From a virus (lineage: Duplodnaviria > Heunggongvirae > Uroviricota > Caudoviricetes): a stretch of 11,677 nt of DNA. Made by a program: the position numbers and the translations under genes. Shown here piece by piece: positions 1,680 through 9,030 of this stretch. The first letter of the stretch is position 1. Every line of letters starts with the position of its first letter. The stretch spans positions 1 to 11,677 of the IMG/VR virus record IMGVR_UViG_2681813234_000006; one strand, 5' to 3'. The notes below the pieces were generated by a model that did not search any database, was not told the DNA's origin, and was given only the letters and a program-made list of their open reading frames with translations.

Positions 1680-2765
1680 TTAGCTCCTGTTCTTATCTAA
1701 TTGTGCATTTCGCAATTTATCGTTCAGCACCAATATTTCACCAACTGTTTGTTCAAAACGCCCGGACTCAAGTTCAACCCCAATCGTGCGACGCCCCAAT
1801 CCCATTGCTGCTTTTATTGTTGCCCCCGATCCCATAAAAAAATCCGCAACCACATCCCCCGGACGACTGCTGGCAGAAATTATCTGACGCAACATATCCG
1901 CCGGTTTTTCGCAGGGATGCTTACCCGGATAATACTGCACGGGCTTATGCGTCCAGACGTCCGTATAAGGAACGGCGGCCGATACAGAAAAATAACGCCG
2001 CAGAGATTTGTATTCCTCAAGCAGACTGGCATATTGCCGGTTCAGTTCACTGTATGTGCTGACCAGTTGCTGGTGTGGCGTTGCCAGCTCCCCACGCTGG
2101 TGCTTTTCTTCTGCAACACACGCGAACAGCGCCTGCAGTTTTCTGTAATCAGCTTCGTTCGGTAACTGCCACTGACAGGTACCAAACCAGTGCGACACCA
2201 TGTTTTTCTTTCCGGTGGCTTCCGCTATCTGTTTGGACGTTATCCCCAGTGATTCACGCGCATCACGGAAGTAAGAAATCAGCGGGGCCATGACGTGTTG
2301 TTTAAGCTCGCGCTCCTTTGCCGCATAGCCATCATTTTTTGGCTGGTATGGCCCCTGATAATGTTCGGCAAACAGAATGCGCTCTGTTGCCGGGAAATAC
2401 GCCCGCAGGCTTTCTTTGTTGCACCCGTTCCAGCGTCCGGATGGCTTCGCCCAGATAATGTGGTTCAGCACATTAAAGCGCTCACGCATCATGATTTCGG
2501 TGTCAGATGCCAGGCGATGACCACAGAACAGGTAGAGACTTCCGGCAGGTTTCAGTACCCGCCAGAACTGAGCCAGACACTGATCCAGCCATTTCAGGTA
2601 ATCATCGTCGCCCTTCCACTGGTTATCCCAGCCCTCGGGCTTCACTTTAAAGTATGGCGGGTCTGTGACTATCAGATCGACAGAGTTTTCCGGTAAGGTC
2701 TGGATAAATTCCAGGCAATCAGCGTTGATTAACTCACAACTGGATATTTTTACAGTATCAACCAT
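1680..2765 (-). CDS. DNA N6-adenine / N4-cytosine methyltransferase, beta class (motif IV precedes motif I), orphan
   Basis: N-terminal SVDLIVTDPPYF (catalytic motif IV, DPPY) and C-terminal GDVVADFFMGSGATIKAAMGLGRRTIGVE (AdoMet-binding motif I); ATG at 2763-2765; no restriction endonuclease candidate adjacent. Confidence 0.9.
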   Translation of the reverse strand: MVDTVKISSCELINADCLEFIQTLPENSVDLIVTDPPYFKVKPEGWDNQWKGDDDYLKWLDQCLAQFWRVLKPAGSLYLFCGHRLASDTEIMMRERFNVLNHIIWAKPSGRWNGCNKESLRAYFPATERILFAEHYQGPYQPKNDGYAAKERELKQHVMAPLISYFRDARESLGITSKQIAEATGKKNMVSHWFGTCQWQLPNEADYRKLQALFACVAEEKHQRGELATPHQQLVSTYSELNRQYASLLEEYKSLRRYFSVSAAVPYTDVWTHKPVQYYPGKHPCEKPADMLRQIISASSRPGDVVADFFMGSGATIKAAMGLGRRTIGVELESGRFEQTVGEILVLNDKLRNAQLDKNRS

Positions 2766-2915
2766 AGATCAATAAGCACTTCTCTGATAGGCTCATACCG
2801 CTTTTGCGCAAAGCAGATGGGCCTGAGGTTTGCTTGTGACCCTAACGCATGAGCAGATGGCTGGCAGGTGCCGCTAACACCCACCAGCCGCCCATTACCA
2901 CAAATGAAAAAACCT

Positions 2916-3113
2916 TCACTGCGGAAGGCGTCTGTAACAACCGAACTGATAATCTGCCAGACCCGCCATAACAAGCTGGGTCAGTATTAACTGACAGCGT
3001 TCGCGTGAAAGGTAAGTATTCTGCGCAATTTCCCCAACTGTTGCCGGTTCAGTGACGCTTAATTCATTAAACACCACTCTGGCTGTTTCGGTCATATCCT
3101 GCTGTTTTAGCAT
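2916..3113 (-). CDS. Small (65 aa) putative winged-helix DNA-binding protein, possibly PapI/FaeA-like
   Basis: ATG at 3111-3113 (alternative ATG at 3093-3095); segment TVGEIAQNTYLSRERCQLILTQLVMAGLA matches the spacing and hydrophobic pattern of the PapI helix-turn-helix ([28 protein letters not shown], recalled from memory). Confidence 0.4.
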   Translation of the reverse strand: MLKQQDMTETARVVFNELSVTEPATVGEIAQNTYLSRERCQLILTQLVMAGLADYQFGCYRRLPQ

Positions 3114-3286
3114 GTCTTTTTCTCTTTATTGGTTAACGTGACATACCAATAACTCTTGTCGAAAAAGCCAGCAAGCTGAAAGACCGGTATTAATAACCAC
3201 CTGCACATTTTATGTACCGAACCATTTTTCTGGCATAAAAAACCTCTCAATGGCGGGCGGTAAAAATCTTTGTTACTCAAGAAATT

Positions 3287-6721: not shown

Positions 6722-7825
6722 TCAAACAATCTGAAAAATATTTCTTGGATTTGTAATAGGTCGATTGATGGAGAACAACTCACGAATTAAATCTTGACTC
6801 AAGCCAGTTTTCATAAGAATTCTTAACCAAGTTGCATCATCCAGCATATCAATCGCTTCGGACAGCATACTTGGTTCTTCGGGGCGCAAAAGTTCATCAC
6901 CTGGTTCAACTCTCGTGTACCCTCTAGAATTAAGATGCATATAGCCAGTTCTTGCCTGTTCCTGGGTCAATAGTCCTAATGCACTGGCTCGATAAATACA
7001 CATTTTAAGGCTAATTTTCCATCTAAGCTTAAATTCAACCAGAGCACTCCAATCGAATTGCTTACCTCGTATTCGTGGAAATTCTTTAATGAAAGATAGC
7101 CTAGGAACCAATAAGGCGCTAGAAAAGTGATCAGCTTGTGATTCCGTAAGTTTATCACCAGTAGTTATGCCCTCATGCATTACTAAATGCCCTAACTCAT
7201 GACCTAAATCAGAGCGAAATCTACATATGCTTTTTTTTACATTGTTCCTGATAATAACAGGCCTGTTATTGTGAACAGTGAATGCATCAACACGATCATC
7301 GACTCCCGTAACATGCGCAACGATTACCCCCAAACTCTCCGCCAATTTCACCATTGATGATATAGGACCAAGACCTAGATTCCATGCACGGCGACAATCT
7401 TCTGCCACTCGCTCAATATCATTCGGGGTAAGTAATTCGGTTCCTGGGTGCTCTGGTATGTTGACATCAGGGAATTCGATTTCACCTTCAACAGCAGAAA
7501 TTATAATATTAAGAATCTCAGCCCTGGCCAAGACACTATTAGTCAGCGTTTGAGTCCTAGACTTCTTACTCCGAAAATGGCAAACATCGCTTTCCAGAGC
7601 ATATTTTCGCTCAGTAAATAGAAAATCGGACTTAATCATAAGAGCTGAGGCTATTAACTCCAGGCATTGCTCTGATGGCCTAAATCCCTTCTCCAATTTG
7701 CTAACGAATTGCTTTGTTTTGCCAATTTTTTCGGCCAACTCTTCACATGAAAGCCCAACAGCCATTCTTGCTAGTTTGAGCTTATCGCCTCGATACTCAG
7801 TGAAGTTATTCACCTGATGTTCCAT
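6722..7825 (-). CDS. Fusion protein: N-terminal XRE-family helix-turn-helix + ImmA/IrrE-type (M78/COG2856) zinc metallopeptidase
   Basis: 367 aa; N-terminal GDKLKLARMAVGLSCEELAEKIGKTKQFVSKLEKG (XRE HTH pattern); central HExxH motif in SDLGHELGHLVMHEG; ATG at 7823-7825; overlaps the upstream gene by 20 nt; AT-rich. Confidence 0.85.
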   Translation of the reverse strand: MEHQVNNFTEYRGDKLKLARMAVGLSCEELAEKIGKTKQFVSKLEKGFRPSEQCLELIASALMIKSDFLFTERKYALESDVCHFRSKKSRTQTLTNSVLARAEILNIIISAVEGEIEFPDVNIPEHPGTELLTPNDIERVAEDCRRAWNLGLGPISSMVKLAESLGVIVAHVTGVDDRVDAFTVHNNRPVIIRNNVKKSICRFRSDLGHELGHLVMHEGITTGDKLTESQADHFSSALLVPRLSFIKEFPRIRGKQFDWSALVEFKLRWKISLKMCIYRASALGLLTQEQARTGYMHLNSRGYTRVEPGDELLRPEEPSMLSEAIDMLDDATWLRILMKTGLSQDLIRELFSINRPITNPRNIFQIV

Positions 7826-8456
7826 TACTGCTCACATCCAAATTTTTATCCTTCGTACGCCGACGAAGAGACACCTTATTAATCTCCGCTTCACCAGGGA
7901 GTGTGTTACCGTCAAGGGGCATAAGTGGCATTGATGCTGTAGATTGATGAGAAACCATACTAATCTGAGCACCATAGGTATTAAACCCAACAAGAGCCAC
8001 CTCCCAACGAGGCAGTGTGGACTCTAATTCACCATCTCCCTCTTCGGATAAAAATGGCTCCGCTATGACTCGCCATGTAATATCTTGCTCAGCCTCAACA
8101 TCACCAAACAATGAAAGCTGCTCATGCTCTACTTTATTTCGACGCAGGCGATGTTTCTTTTTGGGGTTATTAATGCAATCTTTGGTAAATTGTAGCGGAA
8201 CTTTATTTAAAGCAACTACATAGTCCAACCCCTTGGAAATCATCTTAAGACCAGGAATTGCGCCTTCATTTTGAATAAGATGGTTTCTGACCCAATCATA
8301 AGCCCTTACACCTTCAGACCAGTTGCTGTCTAATACGTGCTTATGATAGTACAACTGCTCAAGTACGTTAGCGATCTCCGCCAACAACTGGCGAACATTG
8401 CTTTCAGCAAGATAAGGTTGAAATTCCCAACAAGGAGCTAACTGATTTTCATTCAT
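7806..8456 (-). CDS. Hypothetical 216-aa protein of unknown function; first gene of the two-gene cassette (candidate effector or toxin)
   Basis: ATG at 8454-8456; TAA stop at 7806-7808 lies inside the next gene's first codons; no recognisable catalytic motif; acidic C-terminal tail; AT-rich codon usage; only a weak SD but a near-consensus promoter upstream. Confidence 0.7.
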   Translation of the reverse strand: MNENQLAPCWEFQPYLAESNVRQLLAEIANVLEQLYYHKHVLDSNWSEGVRAYDWVRNHLIQNEGAIPGLKMISKGLDYVVALNKVPLQFTKDCINNPKKKHRLRRNKVEHEQLSLFGDVEAEQDITWRVIAEPFLSEEGDGELESTLPRWEVALVGFNTYGAQISMVSHQSTASMPLMPLDGNTLPGEAEINKVSLRRRTKDKNLDVSSNGTSGE

Positions 8457-8530: not shown

Positions 8531-8553
8531 GCAAAAACCCGCCGAAGCGGGTT
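8531..8553 (-). terminator. Rho-independent terminator downstream of hok
   Basis: 7-bp stem aacccgc (8536-8542) / gcgggtt (8547-8553) with loop cgaa; on the minus strand followed by UUUUUGC; the hairpin core is nearly identical to the one at 6702-6717. Confidence 0.6.
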
Positions 8554-8621
8554 AAGTGCGGGTGCATTGAGGATTCCTGACTCATCAGAGGTGGCGAGGG
8601 ATTTCTCCCTCGCCTGGTCTC

Positions 8622-8777
8622 TTACTCCTCAGGTTCGTAAGCTGTGAAGACAGCGACCTCCGTCTGGTCGGTTCGGATTCGTACCTCGCAGAGGTCTTTC
8701 CTCGTTACCAGTGCCGTCACTATGACGGTTAAACAGATGACGATCAGGGCGATTAACATCGCCTTTTGCTGCTTCAT
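8622..8777 (-). CDS. hokD: Hok/Gef family membrane toxin (type I toxin), HokD/RelF-like
   Basis: 51 aa MKQQKAMLIALIVICLTVIVTALVTRKDLCEVRIRTDQTEVAVFTAYEPEE, differing at one position from HokD/RelF as I recall it; ATG at 8775-8777 with AAGGAG about 9 nt upstream. The track ORF has a 19-codon in-frame upstream extension from 8834. Confidence 0.85.
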   Translation of the reverse strand: MKQQKAMLIALIVICLTVIVTALVTRKDLCEVRIRTDQTEVAVFTAYEPEE

Positions 8778-8834
8778 AGCCTGCTTCTCCTTGCCTTTCG
8801 GCACGTAAGAGGCTAACCTAGATTTGCCGTTCAT

Positions 8835-9030
8835 AGATTGAGCCTCAGATTAATGTTAAGCGTCTTGCAGGACGCGTAATGTTAACTGGGGCTTTTCTCT
8901 ATCTGCCTTTGGTGTTCATGCCTGAGGCAGATAGCCTCAAGCACCCGCAGCAATTCTACTTAAGTTAGATAAGTTTTTCTACGGTATTCTCTCTGCGTCC
9001 CGTAAATAAAGTCTCGGCTCATCATTTTTA
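8835..9030 (-). promoter_or_regulatory. Structured hok upstream/leader region; possible site of hok translational control or an antisense RNA (not demonstrated)
   Basis: 9-bp inverted repeat ctatctgcc (8899-8907) / ggcagatag (8926-8934); additional 7-bp complementarity gcctcag (8842-8848) / ctgaggc (8922-8928); a 9-bp stem-loop ggcgaggga/tccctcgcc (8593-8614) lies just 3' of the hok stop. Confidence 0.3.

Follow-up and report, generated by a model that had tools for sequence, protein, structure and literature searches.

A pseudoknotted leader RNA between a small winged-helix gene and an M.EcoGII-family methyltransferase gene in temperate phages of Enterobacterales

Results

Temperate phages of Enterobacterales carry a three-part late-gene module in which a ~145-nt leader RNA lies between the gene of a small winged-helix protein and that of an M.EcoGII-type N6-adenine DNA methyltransferase (MTase). 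In the stretch of phage DNA analysed here (11,677 nt, hereafter the window), all three lie on the minus strand: the gene of the 65-aa winged-helix protein at 2916..3113, the leader RNA at 2760..2904, running to the MTase start codon, and the gene of the 361-aa MTase at 1680..2765. Both reading frames of the original prediction were recovered (65 aa, 3113-2916; 361 aa, 2765-1680), while the spacer between them, which it had passed over, is a conserved pseudoknotted RNA that tracks the MTase family beyond the winged-helix gene. This leader probably controls the production of a toxic anti-restriction MTase. The reading that we favour, with about even confidence, is that of a late anti-restriction MTase gated by RNA, with a logic like that of Mu com-mom, in which the winged-helix protein plays an accessory regulatory role.

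The two genes occurred together in 31 of 34 genome loci and in all 76 viral loci (76/76), the spacer between them was of constant length (142-153 nt), and mosaic breakpoints in phage genomes lay at the flanks of the winged-helix/RNA/MTase unit; gene, spacer and MTase gene thus travel as one unit. The 65-aa gene had been described as directly upstream of the MTase gene; the order is correct, but a conserved spacer of about 150 nt, itself probably a functional element, separates the two. The neighbours of the MTase gene encode Q, a membrane protein, the winged-helix protein, small unknown ORFs and, downstream, the lysis proteins. Upstream on the same strand lie the gene of the Q antiterminator (4927-4256; PF06323 at 7e-90) and, just 3' of it, a pR'-like late promoter found by promoter scan (4248-4220) and a tR'-like intrinsic terminator found by terminator scan (4169-4146), an order shared by phiP27, phage 1720a-02 and a Providencia phage. 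These elements place the module in the Q-dependent late transcript, in agreement with the late-operon position proposed originally, and the arrangement gives good support to the MTase gene being the first or an early gene on the Q-antiterminated transcript. The window contains no tRNA genes, unlike phiP27, which has them.

Immediately 5' of the winged-helix gene, an alignment of 25 diverse loci revealed a conserved block (3138..3175, minus strand) of the form CTTGCTG-N10-(C)AGAGTTAT..GTCAC, also written CTTGCTG..CAGAGTTAT..GTCAC, with promoter-like elements (-35 TTGCTG at 3174-3169 and -10 TATTGG at 3151-3146, separated by 17 nt). This candidate promoter (3174-3146) scored below threshold in a sigma-70 consensus scan, and the block is possibly a weak promoter.

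The MTase matched PF01555 (N6_N4_Mtase; Pfam search, E 1.5e-42, residues 29-340), with DPPY (residues 35-38) before FxGxG (about 309-313), the order of the beta class, and a weak HTH_3 match at residues 167-193 within the central target recognition domain. No nuclease gene was found among the neighbouring genes, and the assignment as a beta-class orphan MTase is therefore upheld. The enzyme was identical to M.EcoGII at 293 of 345 residues (~85%), the reference having been machine-read from a PDF (PMC11551740, Table S1) in which a few residues may be wrong, and 85% identical to the MTase of phage 1720a-02, which is named as very similar to M.EcoGII (PMC5778455). Phage 1720a-02 also shares the window's winged-helix gene, identical at 63/63 aligned residues, and the intervening spacer. 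Membership in the family of M.EcoGII, a non-specific adenine methyltransferase, is thus well supported by sequence comparison, although 85% identity is no proof that the window's enzyme is itself non-specific. M.EcoGII methylates adenine in any sequence context, can also methylate RNA and needs no partner for full activity, whether in vitro or in vivo (PMC5778455); it is not expressed in the lysogen, and its constitutive expression is deleterious (PMC5778455; PMC12707154). The passages of the M.EcoGII paper that were searched mention neither the upstream winged-helix gene nor the leader RNA, the word 'upstream' being absent (PMC5778455). An anti-restriction or methylome-modifying late function, as first suggested, fits both the ~85% identity to M.EcoGII and the late position.

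The 65-aa ORF is a genuine gene encoding a winged-helix protein. It belongs to a conserved multi-genus family (E. coli, Shigella, Salmonella, Klebsiella, Citrobacter, Proteus, Providencia, Plesiomonas and others), narrow in extent (86 representatives among 1.84 billion), with a median dN/dS of 0.083, indicating strong purifying selection, and with synonymous sites free to vary under invariant residues. AlphaFold2 predicted, with high confidence (pLDDT 91.7), a winged helix of the order H-H-H-beta hairpin (helices 4-16, 26-33 and 37-49; hairpin 53-62), in line with the small winged-helix protein originally proposed. The protein falls into PHROG 331 (1.4e-37; function unknown in PHROG), is labelled hypothetical or 'TrmB family' in RefSeq, gave only generic, sub-threshold wHTH matches in Pfam, and retrieved generic winged helices (IclR, MarR, O-methyltransferase N-domains, SelB) as its top 50 PDB matches in Foldseek; the predicted fold denotes a fold class only, common to thousands of proteins. 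The H3 recognition helix, R-C-Q-L-I-L-T-Q-L, was nearly invariant in protein sequence while its codons varied, an invariance that is partly ascertainment, RCQLILTQL having been among the patterns searched with. That these codons might conceal a nucleic-acid element, RNA or DNA, was considered and rejected, since synonymous positions vary freely.

The resemblance to PapI/FaeA that had been proposed for this protein failed every test run. No match to PF04703 was obtained at E<=1, PapI was not among the matches to PDB sequences at E<=10, and a direct comparison with a PapI sequence, verified by its own match to PF04703 (6.5e-32), gave an hhalign probability of 1.1% and a BLASTP E of 0.17; the original prediction had itself made the resemblance depend on similarity to FaeA/PapI models, and it falls with these results. 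What the window protein shares with PapI/FaeA (PF04703) is a single-domain winged helix of about 65-77 aa, whereas the two differ in sequence, with no detectable relationship, in genomic context and in the partner methylase, which is Dam for PapI and not so here.

We next consider the spacer RNA itself. The window leader matched the covariance model with 125.9 bits (E 2.4e-26) and had a minimum free energy (MFE) of -61.3 kcal/mol (z -3.5). Its predicted helices, all on the minus strand, are P1 (2902-2898 / 2839-2835), P1b (2895-2890 / 2854-2849), P2 (2889-2878 / 2870-2859) and P3 (2824-2811 / 2804-2789), together with the pseudoknot P5 (2857-2852 / 2834-2829). Across 86 close loci 93.7% of cells were paired, compared to 30-46% with the partners slid, and across 60 diverse sequences 87.4% compared to 27-40%, with double changes in 31 of 39 pairs; these pair counts are inflated because the sequences were aligned by fitting them to the structure of the model, and many of them are closely related. 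In the same 60 sequences the covariation score was 0.401 against 0.149 for shuffled alignments (0/500 shuffles as high). The pseudoknot was also recovered without an alignment, the mean best helix being 4.0 for matched and 3.17 ± 0.11 for swapped pairs, and one of its pairs occurred as UA:45, CG:17, AU:12 and UG:5. Covariance-model matches with E<=0.01 were confined to the sense strand; G-U pairs were frequent. Collectively, these comparisons give good support to a conserved pseudoknotted RNA of P1, P1b, P2, P3 and P5 as the MTase 5' leader. A further helix, P6 (2834-2831 / 2778-2775), paired in 87% of close relatives and in 53% of the diverse set with a register shift, is tentative only.

Ahead of the leader, the terminator scan placed a hairpin with a U-run, P0 (2903..2929, minus strand), across the stop codon of the winged-helix gene, the stop codon lying within the loop. 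Its stem covaries across loci (CCUUC/GAAGG, GCCUCC/GGGGGC, GCUGCC/GGCAG) and is missing from the Proteus/Providencia lineage; P0 looks like a terminator or attenuator.

Searches against the 4227 Rfam families gave no match in the spacer at E<=1 for the whole window, noise only (12-15 bits) at E<=10 for a 221-nt region, and no match for a Salmonella copy of the leader. Several other explanations of the spacer were rejected. A leader peptide (MGGWWVL) or other coding is contradicted by the lack of a frame open in all loci, by lengths that are not multiples of three and by the differing Proteus versions; the 12-nt palindrome CTTTGCGCAAAG, considered as a DNA operator, is the apical stem of P3; and a helix P4 (AUCAG/CUGAU) masking the start site shows a frequent, uncompensated U-to-C change.

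No canonical Shine-Dalgarno sequence precedes the MTase start codon. In its place stands the near-invariant UGAUCUAUG (2763..2771, minus strand), which comprises the start codon with UGAUC before it. UGAUC is complementary to GAUCA of the 16S rRNA 3' tail, and also to GGUCA in the P1 3' strand region, with which it is paired in the MFE fold. This sequestor pairing was longer when leader segments were matched (4.72) than when they were swapped (4.27 ± 0.11) and was missing in most phiKO2-type leaders.

The leader RNA accompanies the MTase family over a wider range than the adjacent winged-helix gene. The covariance model found it in 61 of 99 diverse viral loci, with matches upstream of the MTases of phiKO2, PY54, N15, VHML, MAR, ST2-1pr and phiARM81ld; in N15, phiKO2, PY54 and the Vibrio and Aeromonas phages it precedes distant M.EcoGII-family MTases, with no adjacent winged-helix gene. 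In N15-like phages a distant winged-helix homologue, gp51, sits 5' of the annotated late promoter, and in the Aeromonas phage phiARM81ld a Com-like protein (PF10122) is encoded between the leader RNA and a 55%-identical MTase. With five covarying helices and a pseudoknot, a range over Enterobacterales, Vibrio and Aeromonas phages and no counterpart in Rfam, the leader is a candidate new cis-regulatory RNA family; a bulk survey listed four unnamed candidate RNAs 5' of phage N6-adenine MTases (PMC10690425), and the window leader may be among them.

Discussion

We propose that the MTase would hypermethylate replicated phage DNA before packaging and so confer broad protection from restriction, and that its synthesis, the enzyme being toxic, would be gated at translation. 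In the OFF state, the start region UGAUCUAUG would pair with GGUCA of the P1 3' strand region and shut translation; in the ON state, P1, P1b, P2 and the pseudoknot would form and leave the MTase start site free. Some effector would tip the balance between the two folds. In this lineage the winged-helix protein, made just before the RNA from the same transcript, is the most economical candidate, and it would then act by the logic of Mu Com, which activates mom translation, with unrelated parts. Because the leader is also found where no winged-helix gene adjoins it, its core sensor may respond to something else; the MTase itself and SAM/SAH are candidates, as is a Com-like protein in Aeromonas phages. 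Since the fold is typical of DNA binders and many phages have the RNA with no winged-helix gene next to it, the protein may not act on RNA at all, and the terminator-like P0 means that control could be transcriptional attenuation instead of translational. A bolder reading, which we consider doubtful, is that the leader represents a new class of riboregulator specific to the non-specific adenine MTases of temperate phages (a riboswitch for SAM/SAH or some other small molecule, or a feedback sensor bound or even methylated by the MTase under its control), with the winged-helix protein as a new RNA-binding activator replacing Com in lambdoid and N15-like phages.

Somewhat unlikely in our judgement, yet the strongest of the alternatives, is that the winged-helix protein is an ordinary, controller-like DNA-binding transcription factor repressing or activating a module promoter, with the RNA leader independent of it. 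Most of its structural matches are to winged helices that bind DNA, of the IclR and MarR kinds, the H3 recognition helix is near-invariant in protein while its codons vary, in every lineage the gene follows a conserved non-coding block whose elements are spaced like those of a promoter, the leader is found without the adjacent gene, and the distant homologue gp51 of N15-like phages lies upstream of the annotated late promoter. Against this, there is no conserved palindromic operator, the H3 invariance is in part a product of the search pattern, and the candidate promoter failed the sigma-70 consensus scan. A TTATTGGT..ACCAATAA repeat before the window's winged-helix gene was considered as an operator and rejected, as it is not conserved in other loci. 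Nor does the protein resemble the controller (C) proteins of restriction-modification systems, being a winged helix rather than of Xre type, with no conserved palindrome and no nuclease. Candidate targets for such a factor are the CTTGCTG..CAGAGTTAT..GTCAC block before its own gene or a DNA site in the spacer.

It is improbable that the winged-helix protein instead acts as an MTase subunit or determines MTase specificity, restraining the enzyme or redirecting it, for instance towards RNA or particular DNA. This idea draws on Stx phage PA8, in which a small winged-HTH gene, PNB-2, lies just 5' of the gene of the MTase M.EcoPA8orf6770P, and the two proteins work together as a 1:1 complex whose substrate becomes 16S rRNA (Gong et al. 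2023, PMC10810198); the strict gene linkage in the present loci (31/34 genome and 76/76 viral) and the ability of M.EcoGII to methylate RNA (PMC5778455) are in keeping with it. Homology to the PA8 PNB-2/MT-A70 pair was, however, rejected: PNB-2 has 143 aa, its partner is a 208-aa MT-A70 enzyme, and neither is related to the window proteins. The PA8 genes also overlap, lie at the opposite end of the prophage and are described without a structured spacer (PMC10810198). Moreover, M.EcoGII reaches full activity by itself, both in vitro and in vivo (PMC5778455), many members of the MTase family have no adjacent winged-helix gene, and the MTase C-terminus, the type of region suggested as important for partner binding in PA8, is the variable mosaic end in the present case.

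A PapI-type switch depends on a methylase that is specific for GATC and competes with Lrp where GATC sites are paired, whereas the window MTase is 85% identical to the non-specific M.EcoGII and lies in a Q-dependent phage late region; no paired GATC/Lrp sites came to notice in a non-systematic inspection. An epigenetic switch of the PapI type, with the small protein and MTase methylation jointly setting heritable ON/OFF states of a promoter, is almost certainly wrong: it has in its favour the fold class and size of the protein and one invariant GATC at the MTase start site, but FaeA/PapI homology is absent (Pfam, PDB sequence search, hhalign), the setting is a Q-dependent phage late operon and not a fimbrial regulatory region, the lone GATC is better explained at the RNA level as the UGAUC of the start site, the closest characterised relative of the MTase is non-specific for context and not GATC-specific Dam, which rules out a Dam/GATC phase-variation switch, and the family, silent in lysogens (PMC5778455), cannot maintain an epigenetic state.

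Returning to the RNA-gated late MTase, M.EcoGII is a widely used reagent, and a dedicated leader RNA with a companion protein would offer a concrete, testable explanation of what keeps its gene silent in the native host. The module also lies between Q and stx in many Stx phages, so attenuation or processing of the late transcript there could affect toxin expression.

Among known systems, the closest is M.EcoGII, which like M.EcoGI is a prophage-borne non-specific adenine MTase of E. coli O104:H4 C227-11 (Murray et al. 2018, PMC5778455). M.EcoGII and the window enzyme are both prophage-borne orphans with DPPY, an HTH-containing target recognition domain and FxGxG; they differ in length (349 aa and 361 aa, respectively) and in a divergent C-terminal tail. 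Translational riboswitches and protein-binding leaders (such as those of T4 gene 32 and ribosomal proteins) likewise have a conserved structured 5' leader up to the start codon, with alternative pairings of the closing helix and the ribosome-binding region, to which the window leader bears a likeness; it matches none of the known riboswitches, including those for SAM/SAH, among the 4227 Rfam families.

The logic is most like that of Mu com-mom, in which a small regulator gene lies immediately 5' of a toxic, broad-specificity modification gene (Hattman 1999; Drozdz et al. 2012, PMC3299994; PMC6483171), the same order as here. Both are late modules with an enzyme that stays silent in the lysogen; for the M.EcoGII family, silence and toxicity are taken from the literature (PMC5778455; PMC12707154). 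In Mu, mRNA structure at the enzyme start limits translation, and in the window leader the GGUCA/UGAUC pairing is predicted in the MFE fold. Mu-like prophages have non-specific adenine MTases in place of mom (com-hin1523/hia5/nma1821 operons), and the com-hin1523/hia5 operons keep the layout of com-mom (PMC3299994; PMC6483171). The parts are different: Mu Com is a Cys4 zinc ribbon, whereas the window protein is a predicted winged helix with no PF10122 match and only two conserved Cys; the Mu RNA is a short hairpin, whereas that of the window is pseudoknotted, multi-helix and ~145 nt long; com and mom overlap, whereas the window genes are 150 nt apart; and Com binds mRNA and activates mom translation, whereas the window protein is, by analogy, a candidate effector. 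This comparison suggests that phages have found at least two solutions, built from unrelated parts, to making a lethal, broadly DNA-modifying enzyme only at the end of infection, one being Com with its hairpin, while the other would be a winged-helix protein with a pseudoknotted leader.

A conserved structured RNA upstream of the methyltransferase

The spacer between the gene for the 65-aa winged-helix protein (3113-2916, minus strand) and that for the 361-aa methyltransferase (MTase; 2765-1680, minus strand) was highly conserved, carried compensatory changes, and contained no reading frame open in all loci. A covariance model built on the structure derived for the spacer gave exactly one sense-strand match per locus in 86 non-redundant loci. 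Distant homologues of the MTase (52-62% identity) in enterobacterial, Vibrio and Aeromonas phages (phiKO2, PY54, N15, Vibrio VHML, MAR and ST2-1pr, and Aeromonas phiARM81ld) also had a match upstream, and of another 99 diverse viral loci 61 were matched as well. With alignments fitted to the model's structure and many sequences being close relatives, 93.7% of cells paired in the close-relative alignment (86 loci) versus 30-46% with partners slid, and 87.4% versus 27-40% in the diverse alignment. In the latter, 31 of 39 pairs changed on both sides, and the covariation score was 0.401 compared with 0.149 after shuffling (0/500 shuffles as high). Helices P1, P1b, P2 and P3 covaried. In addition, the tail following P1 paired with the strand that separates P2 from P1b, forming a pseudoknot; a pair within it was seen as UA (45), CG (17), AU (12) and UG (5), and an alignment-free test gave a mean best helix of 4.0 for matched versus 3.17 ± 0.11 for swapped pairs. 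The window leader had a minimum free energy (MFE) of -61.3 kcal/mol (z = -3.5). As judged from this covariation, the spacer is a structured RNA (2904-2760, minus strand). Rfam returned no match to it; a large-scale survey of structured RNAs from viruses lists four candidates, all unnamed, that lie upstream of N6-adenine MTases (PMC10690425). The stop codon of the small gene is covered by a further hairpin, which has a covarying stem and a U-run and is a possible transcription terminator or attenuator.

In place of a Shine-Dalgarno sequence, a near-invariant UGAUC precedes the MTase start codon and is complementary to a GGUCA overlapping the 3' strand of P1; the two were paired in the MFE fold of the window leader. 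Complementarity across diverse leaders was 4.72 for matched versus 4.27 ± 0.11 for swapped combinations, and was missing in most phiKO2-type leaders. This pattern suggests a switch, in which closed P1 would leave the MTase start site free and open P1 would mask it.

A 74-aa ORF (2750-2974, minus strand) spans the entire leader together with the last part of the small gene, and the database proteins P0061, P0071, P0074 and P0102 are frameshift fusions of the winged-helix gene into this frame, probably annotation artefacts. Vibrio phage MAR gp57 (L246:1287-1445), a 52-aa hypothetical protein without a Pfam match, lies almost wholly inside the covariance-model match (1313-1456), as does the same region of VHML (L241), and is probably a miscalled ORF. 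In phage N15 gene 52 (L240:1501-1735), the annotated gp52 start lies 234 nt downstream of the point at which the MTase tblastn match begins, and the leader match runs as far as 1506; the true start codon is probably further upstream than the deposited one.

A linked module in the late operon

Between the window and public phages, similarity was limited to the small gene, the MTase and roughly 130 nt on the upstream side, and the flanking genes differed. The MTase followed the small gene in 31 of 34 genome loci collected via the small protein (spacer 142-153 nt), and the small gene was present in all 76 evaluable viral loci found via the MTase. One Enterobacteriaceae locus (MGYG-HGUT-00110, L020:4001-4150) retains Q together with a winged-helix gene truncated at its 5' end (residues 13-63) but lacks a downstream MTase; it is probably a decayed copy of the module.

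The window is part of an Escherichia coli lambdoid prophage and shares 99.8% identity with strain N18-04097. The relevant genes, all on the minus strand, run DUF968, RusA, the Q antiterminator (4927-4256; PF06323, 7e-90), a 237-aa membrane protein (4000-3287; PHROG 1521, unknown function), the 65-aa ORF, a 150-nt gap, the MTase and small ORFs, with the lysis genes just beyond the window edge. Because a pR'-like promoter (4248-4220, minus strand) and a strong intrinsic terminator (4169-4146, minus strand) come after Q, the region is part of a Q-dependent late transcript. A conserved block with promoter-like spacing also lies upstream of the small gene. Separately, ACCGCCCGCCATTGAGAGGTTTTTT (3233-3262, minus strand) aligns with strong tR'-type terminators directly preceding the module in other phages, and its stem is degenerate in the window; it looks like a relic, the membrane-protein gene having come between tR' and the module.

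Elsewhere, a hok/sok type I toxin-antitoxin locus lies at 8622-8946 (minus strand; sok RNA, RF01794, 111.7 bits), where RefSeq annotates hokD at the corresponding position in N18-04097. At 8532-8613 (minus strand) there is a weak match to isrK, an Hfq-binding sRNA of Salmonella Gifsy prophages; it scores 26.4 bits where the gathering score is 50, and may reflect either a diverged relative or chance. The stretch at 6722-8456 (minus strand), between hok/sok and the nin-like region, encodes a 367-aa HTH-domain protein and, overlapping with it, a 216-aa protein of unknown function; the two are a possible regulatory or defence pair.

The encoded proteins and comparison with known systems

Both ORFs proved to be real genes. 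Homologues of the 65-aa protein occur across Enterobacterales, with varying synonymous sites, fixed residues and a median dN/dS of 0.083, and the MTase carries PF01555 (1.5e-42) with DPPY preceding FxGxG, the motif order originally noted. The AlphaFold2 model of the small protein is a confident winged helix (pLDDT 91.7) of a narrow family (86 representatives among 1.84 billion proteins; PHROG 331, unknown function). Its proposed PapI/FaeA resemblance was rejected: Pfam matches were sub-threshold generic winged-helix families without FaeA, a PDB sequence search found nothing relevant, Foldseek matches were generic winged helices (IclR, MarR, O-methyltransferase, SelB), and a Pfam-verified PapI sequence (PF04703, 6.5e-32) scored an hhalign probability of 1.1% against the family profile.

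The MTase is identical to M.EcoGII at 293 of 345 residues and shares 85% identity with that of phage 1720a-02, which Murray et al. name as very similar to M.EcoGII (PMC5778455). M.EcoGII itself methylates adenine in any context, is unexpressed in its own lysogen and does harm under constitutive expression (PMC5778455, PMC12707154). Given these properties, a GATC-based phase-variation switch is not plausible. The alternative in the original prediction, a late anti-restriction role, is plausible from M.EcoGII kinship and the Q-dependent late position.

The winged-helix gene lies just upstream of the RNA in at least 20 of 60 diverse RNA-carrying loci and is absent there in many others. N15-like phages encode a distant homologue, gp51 (hhalign 66%), ahead of the late promoter and terminator annotated there; the RNA and MTase come after these two elements. 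Candidate partners of the protein are the leader RNA, DNA or the MTase. A small protein that binds an MTase is reported from another phage (PA8 PNB-2; PMC10810198), although that pair is not homologous to the window's proteins. Aeromonas phage phiARM81ld carries a Mu Com-like zinc-ribbon gene (PF10122) between RNA and MTase. In Mu, Com is reported to activate translation of the toxic gene mom, and in Mu-like prophages non-specific adenine MTases are reported to have Com homologues encoded ahead of them (PMC3299994, PMC6483171); although its parts are unrelated to those of com-mom, the present module resembles that system in its logic.
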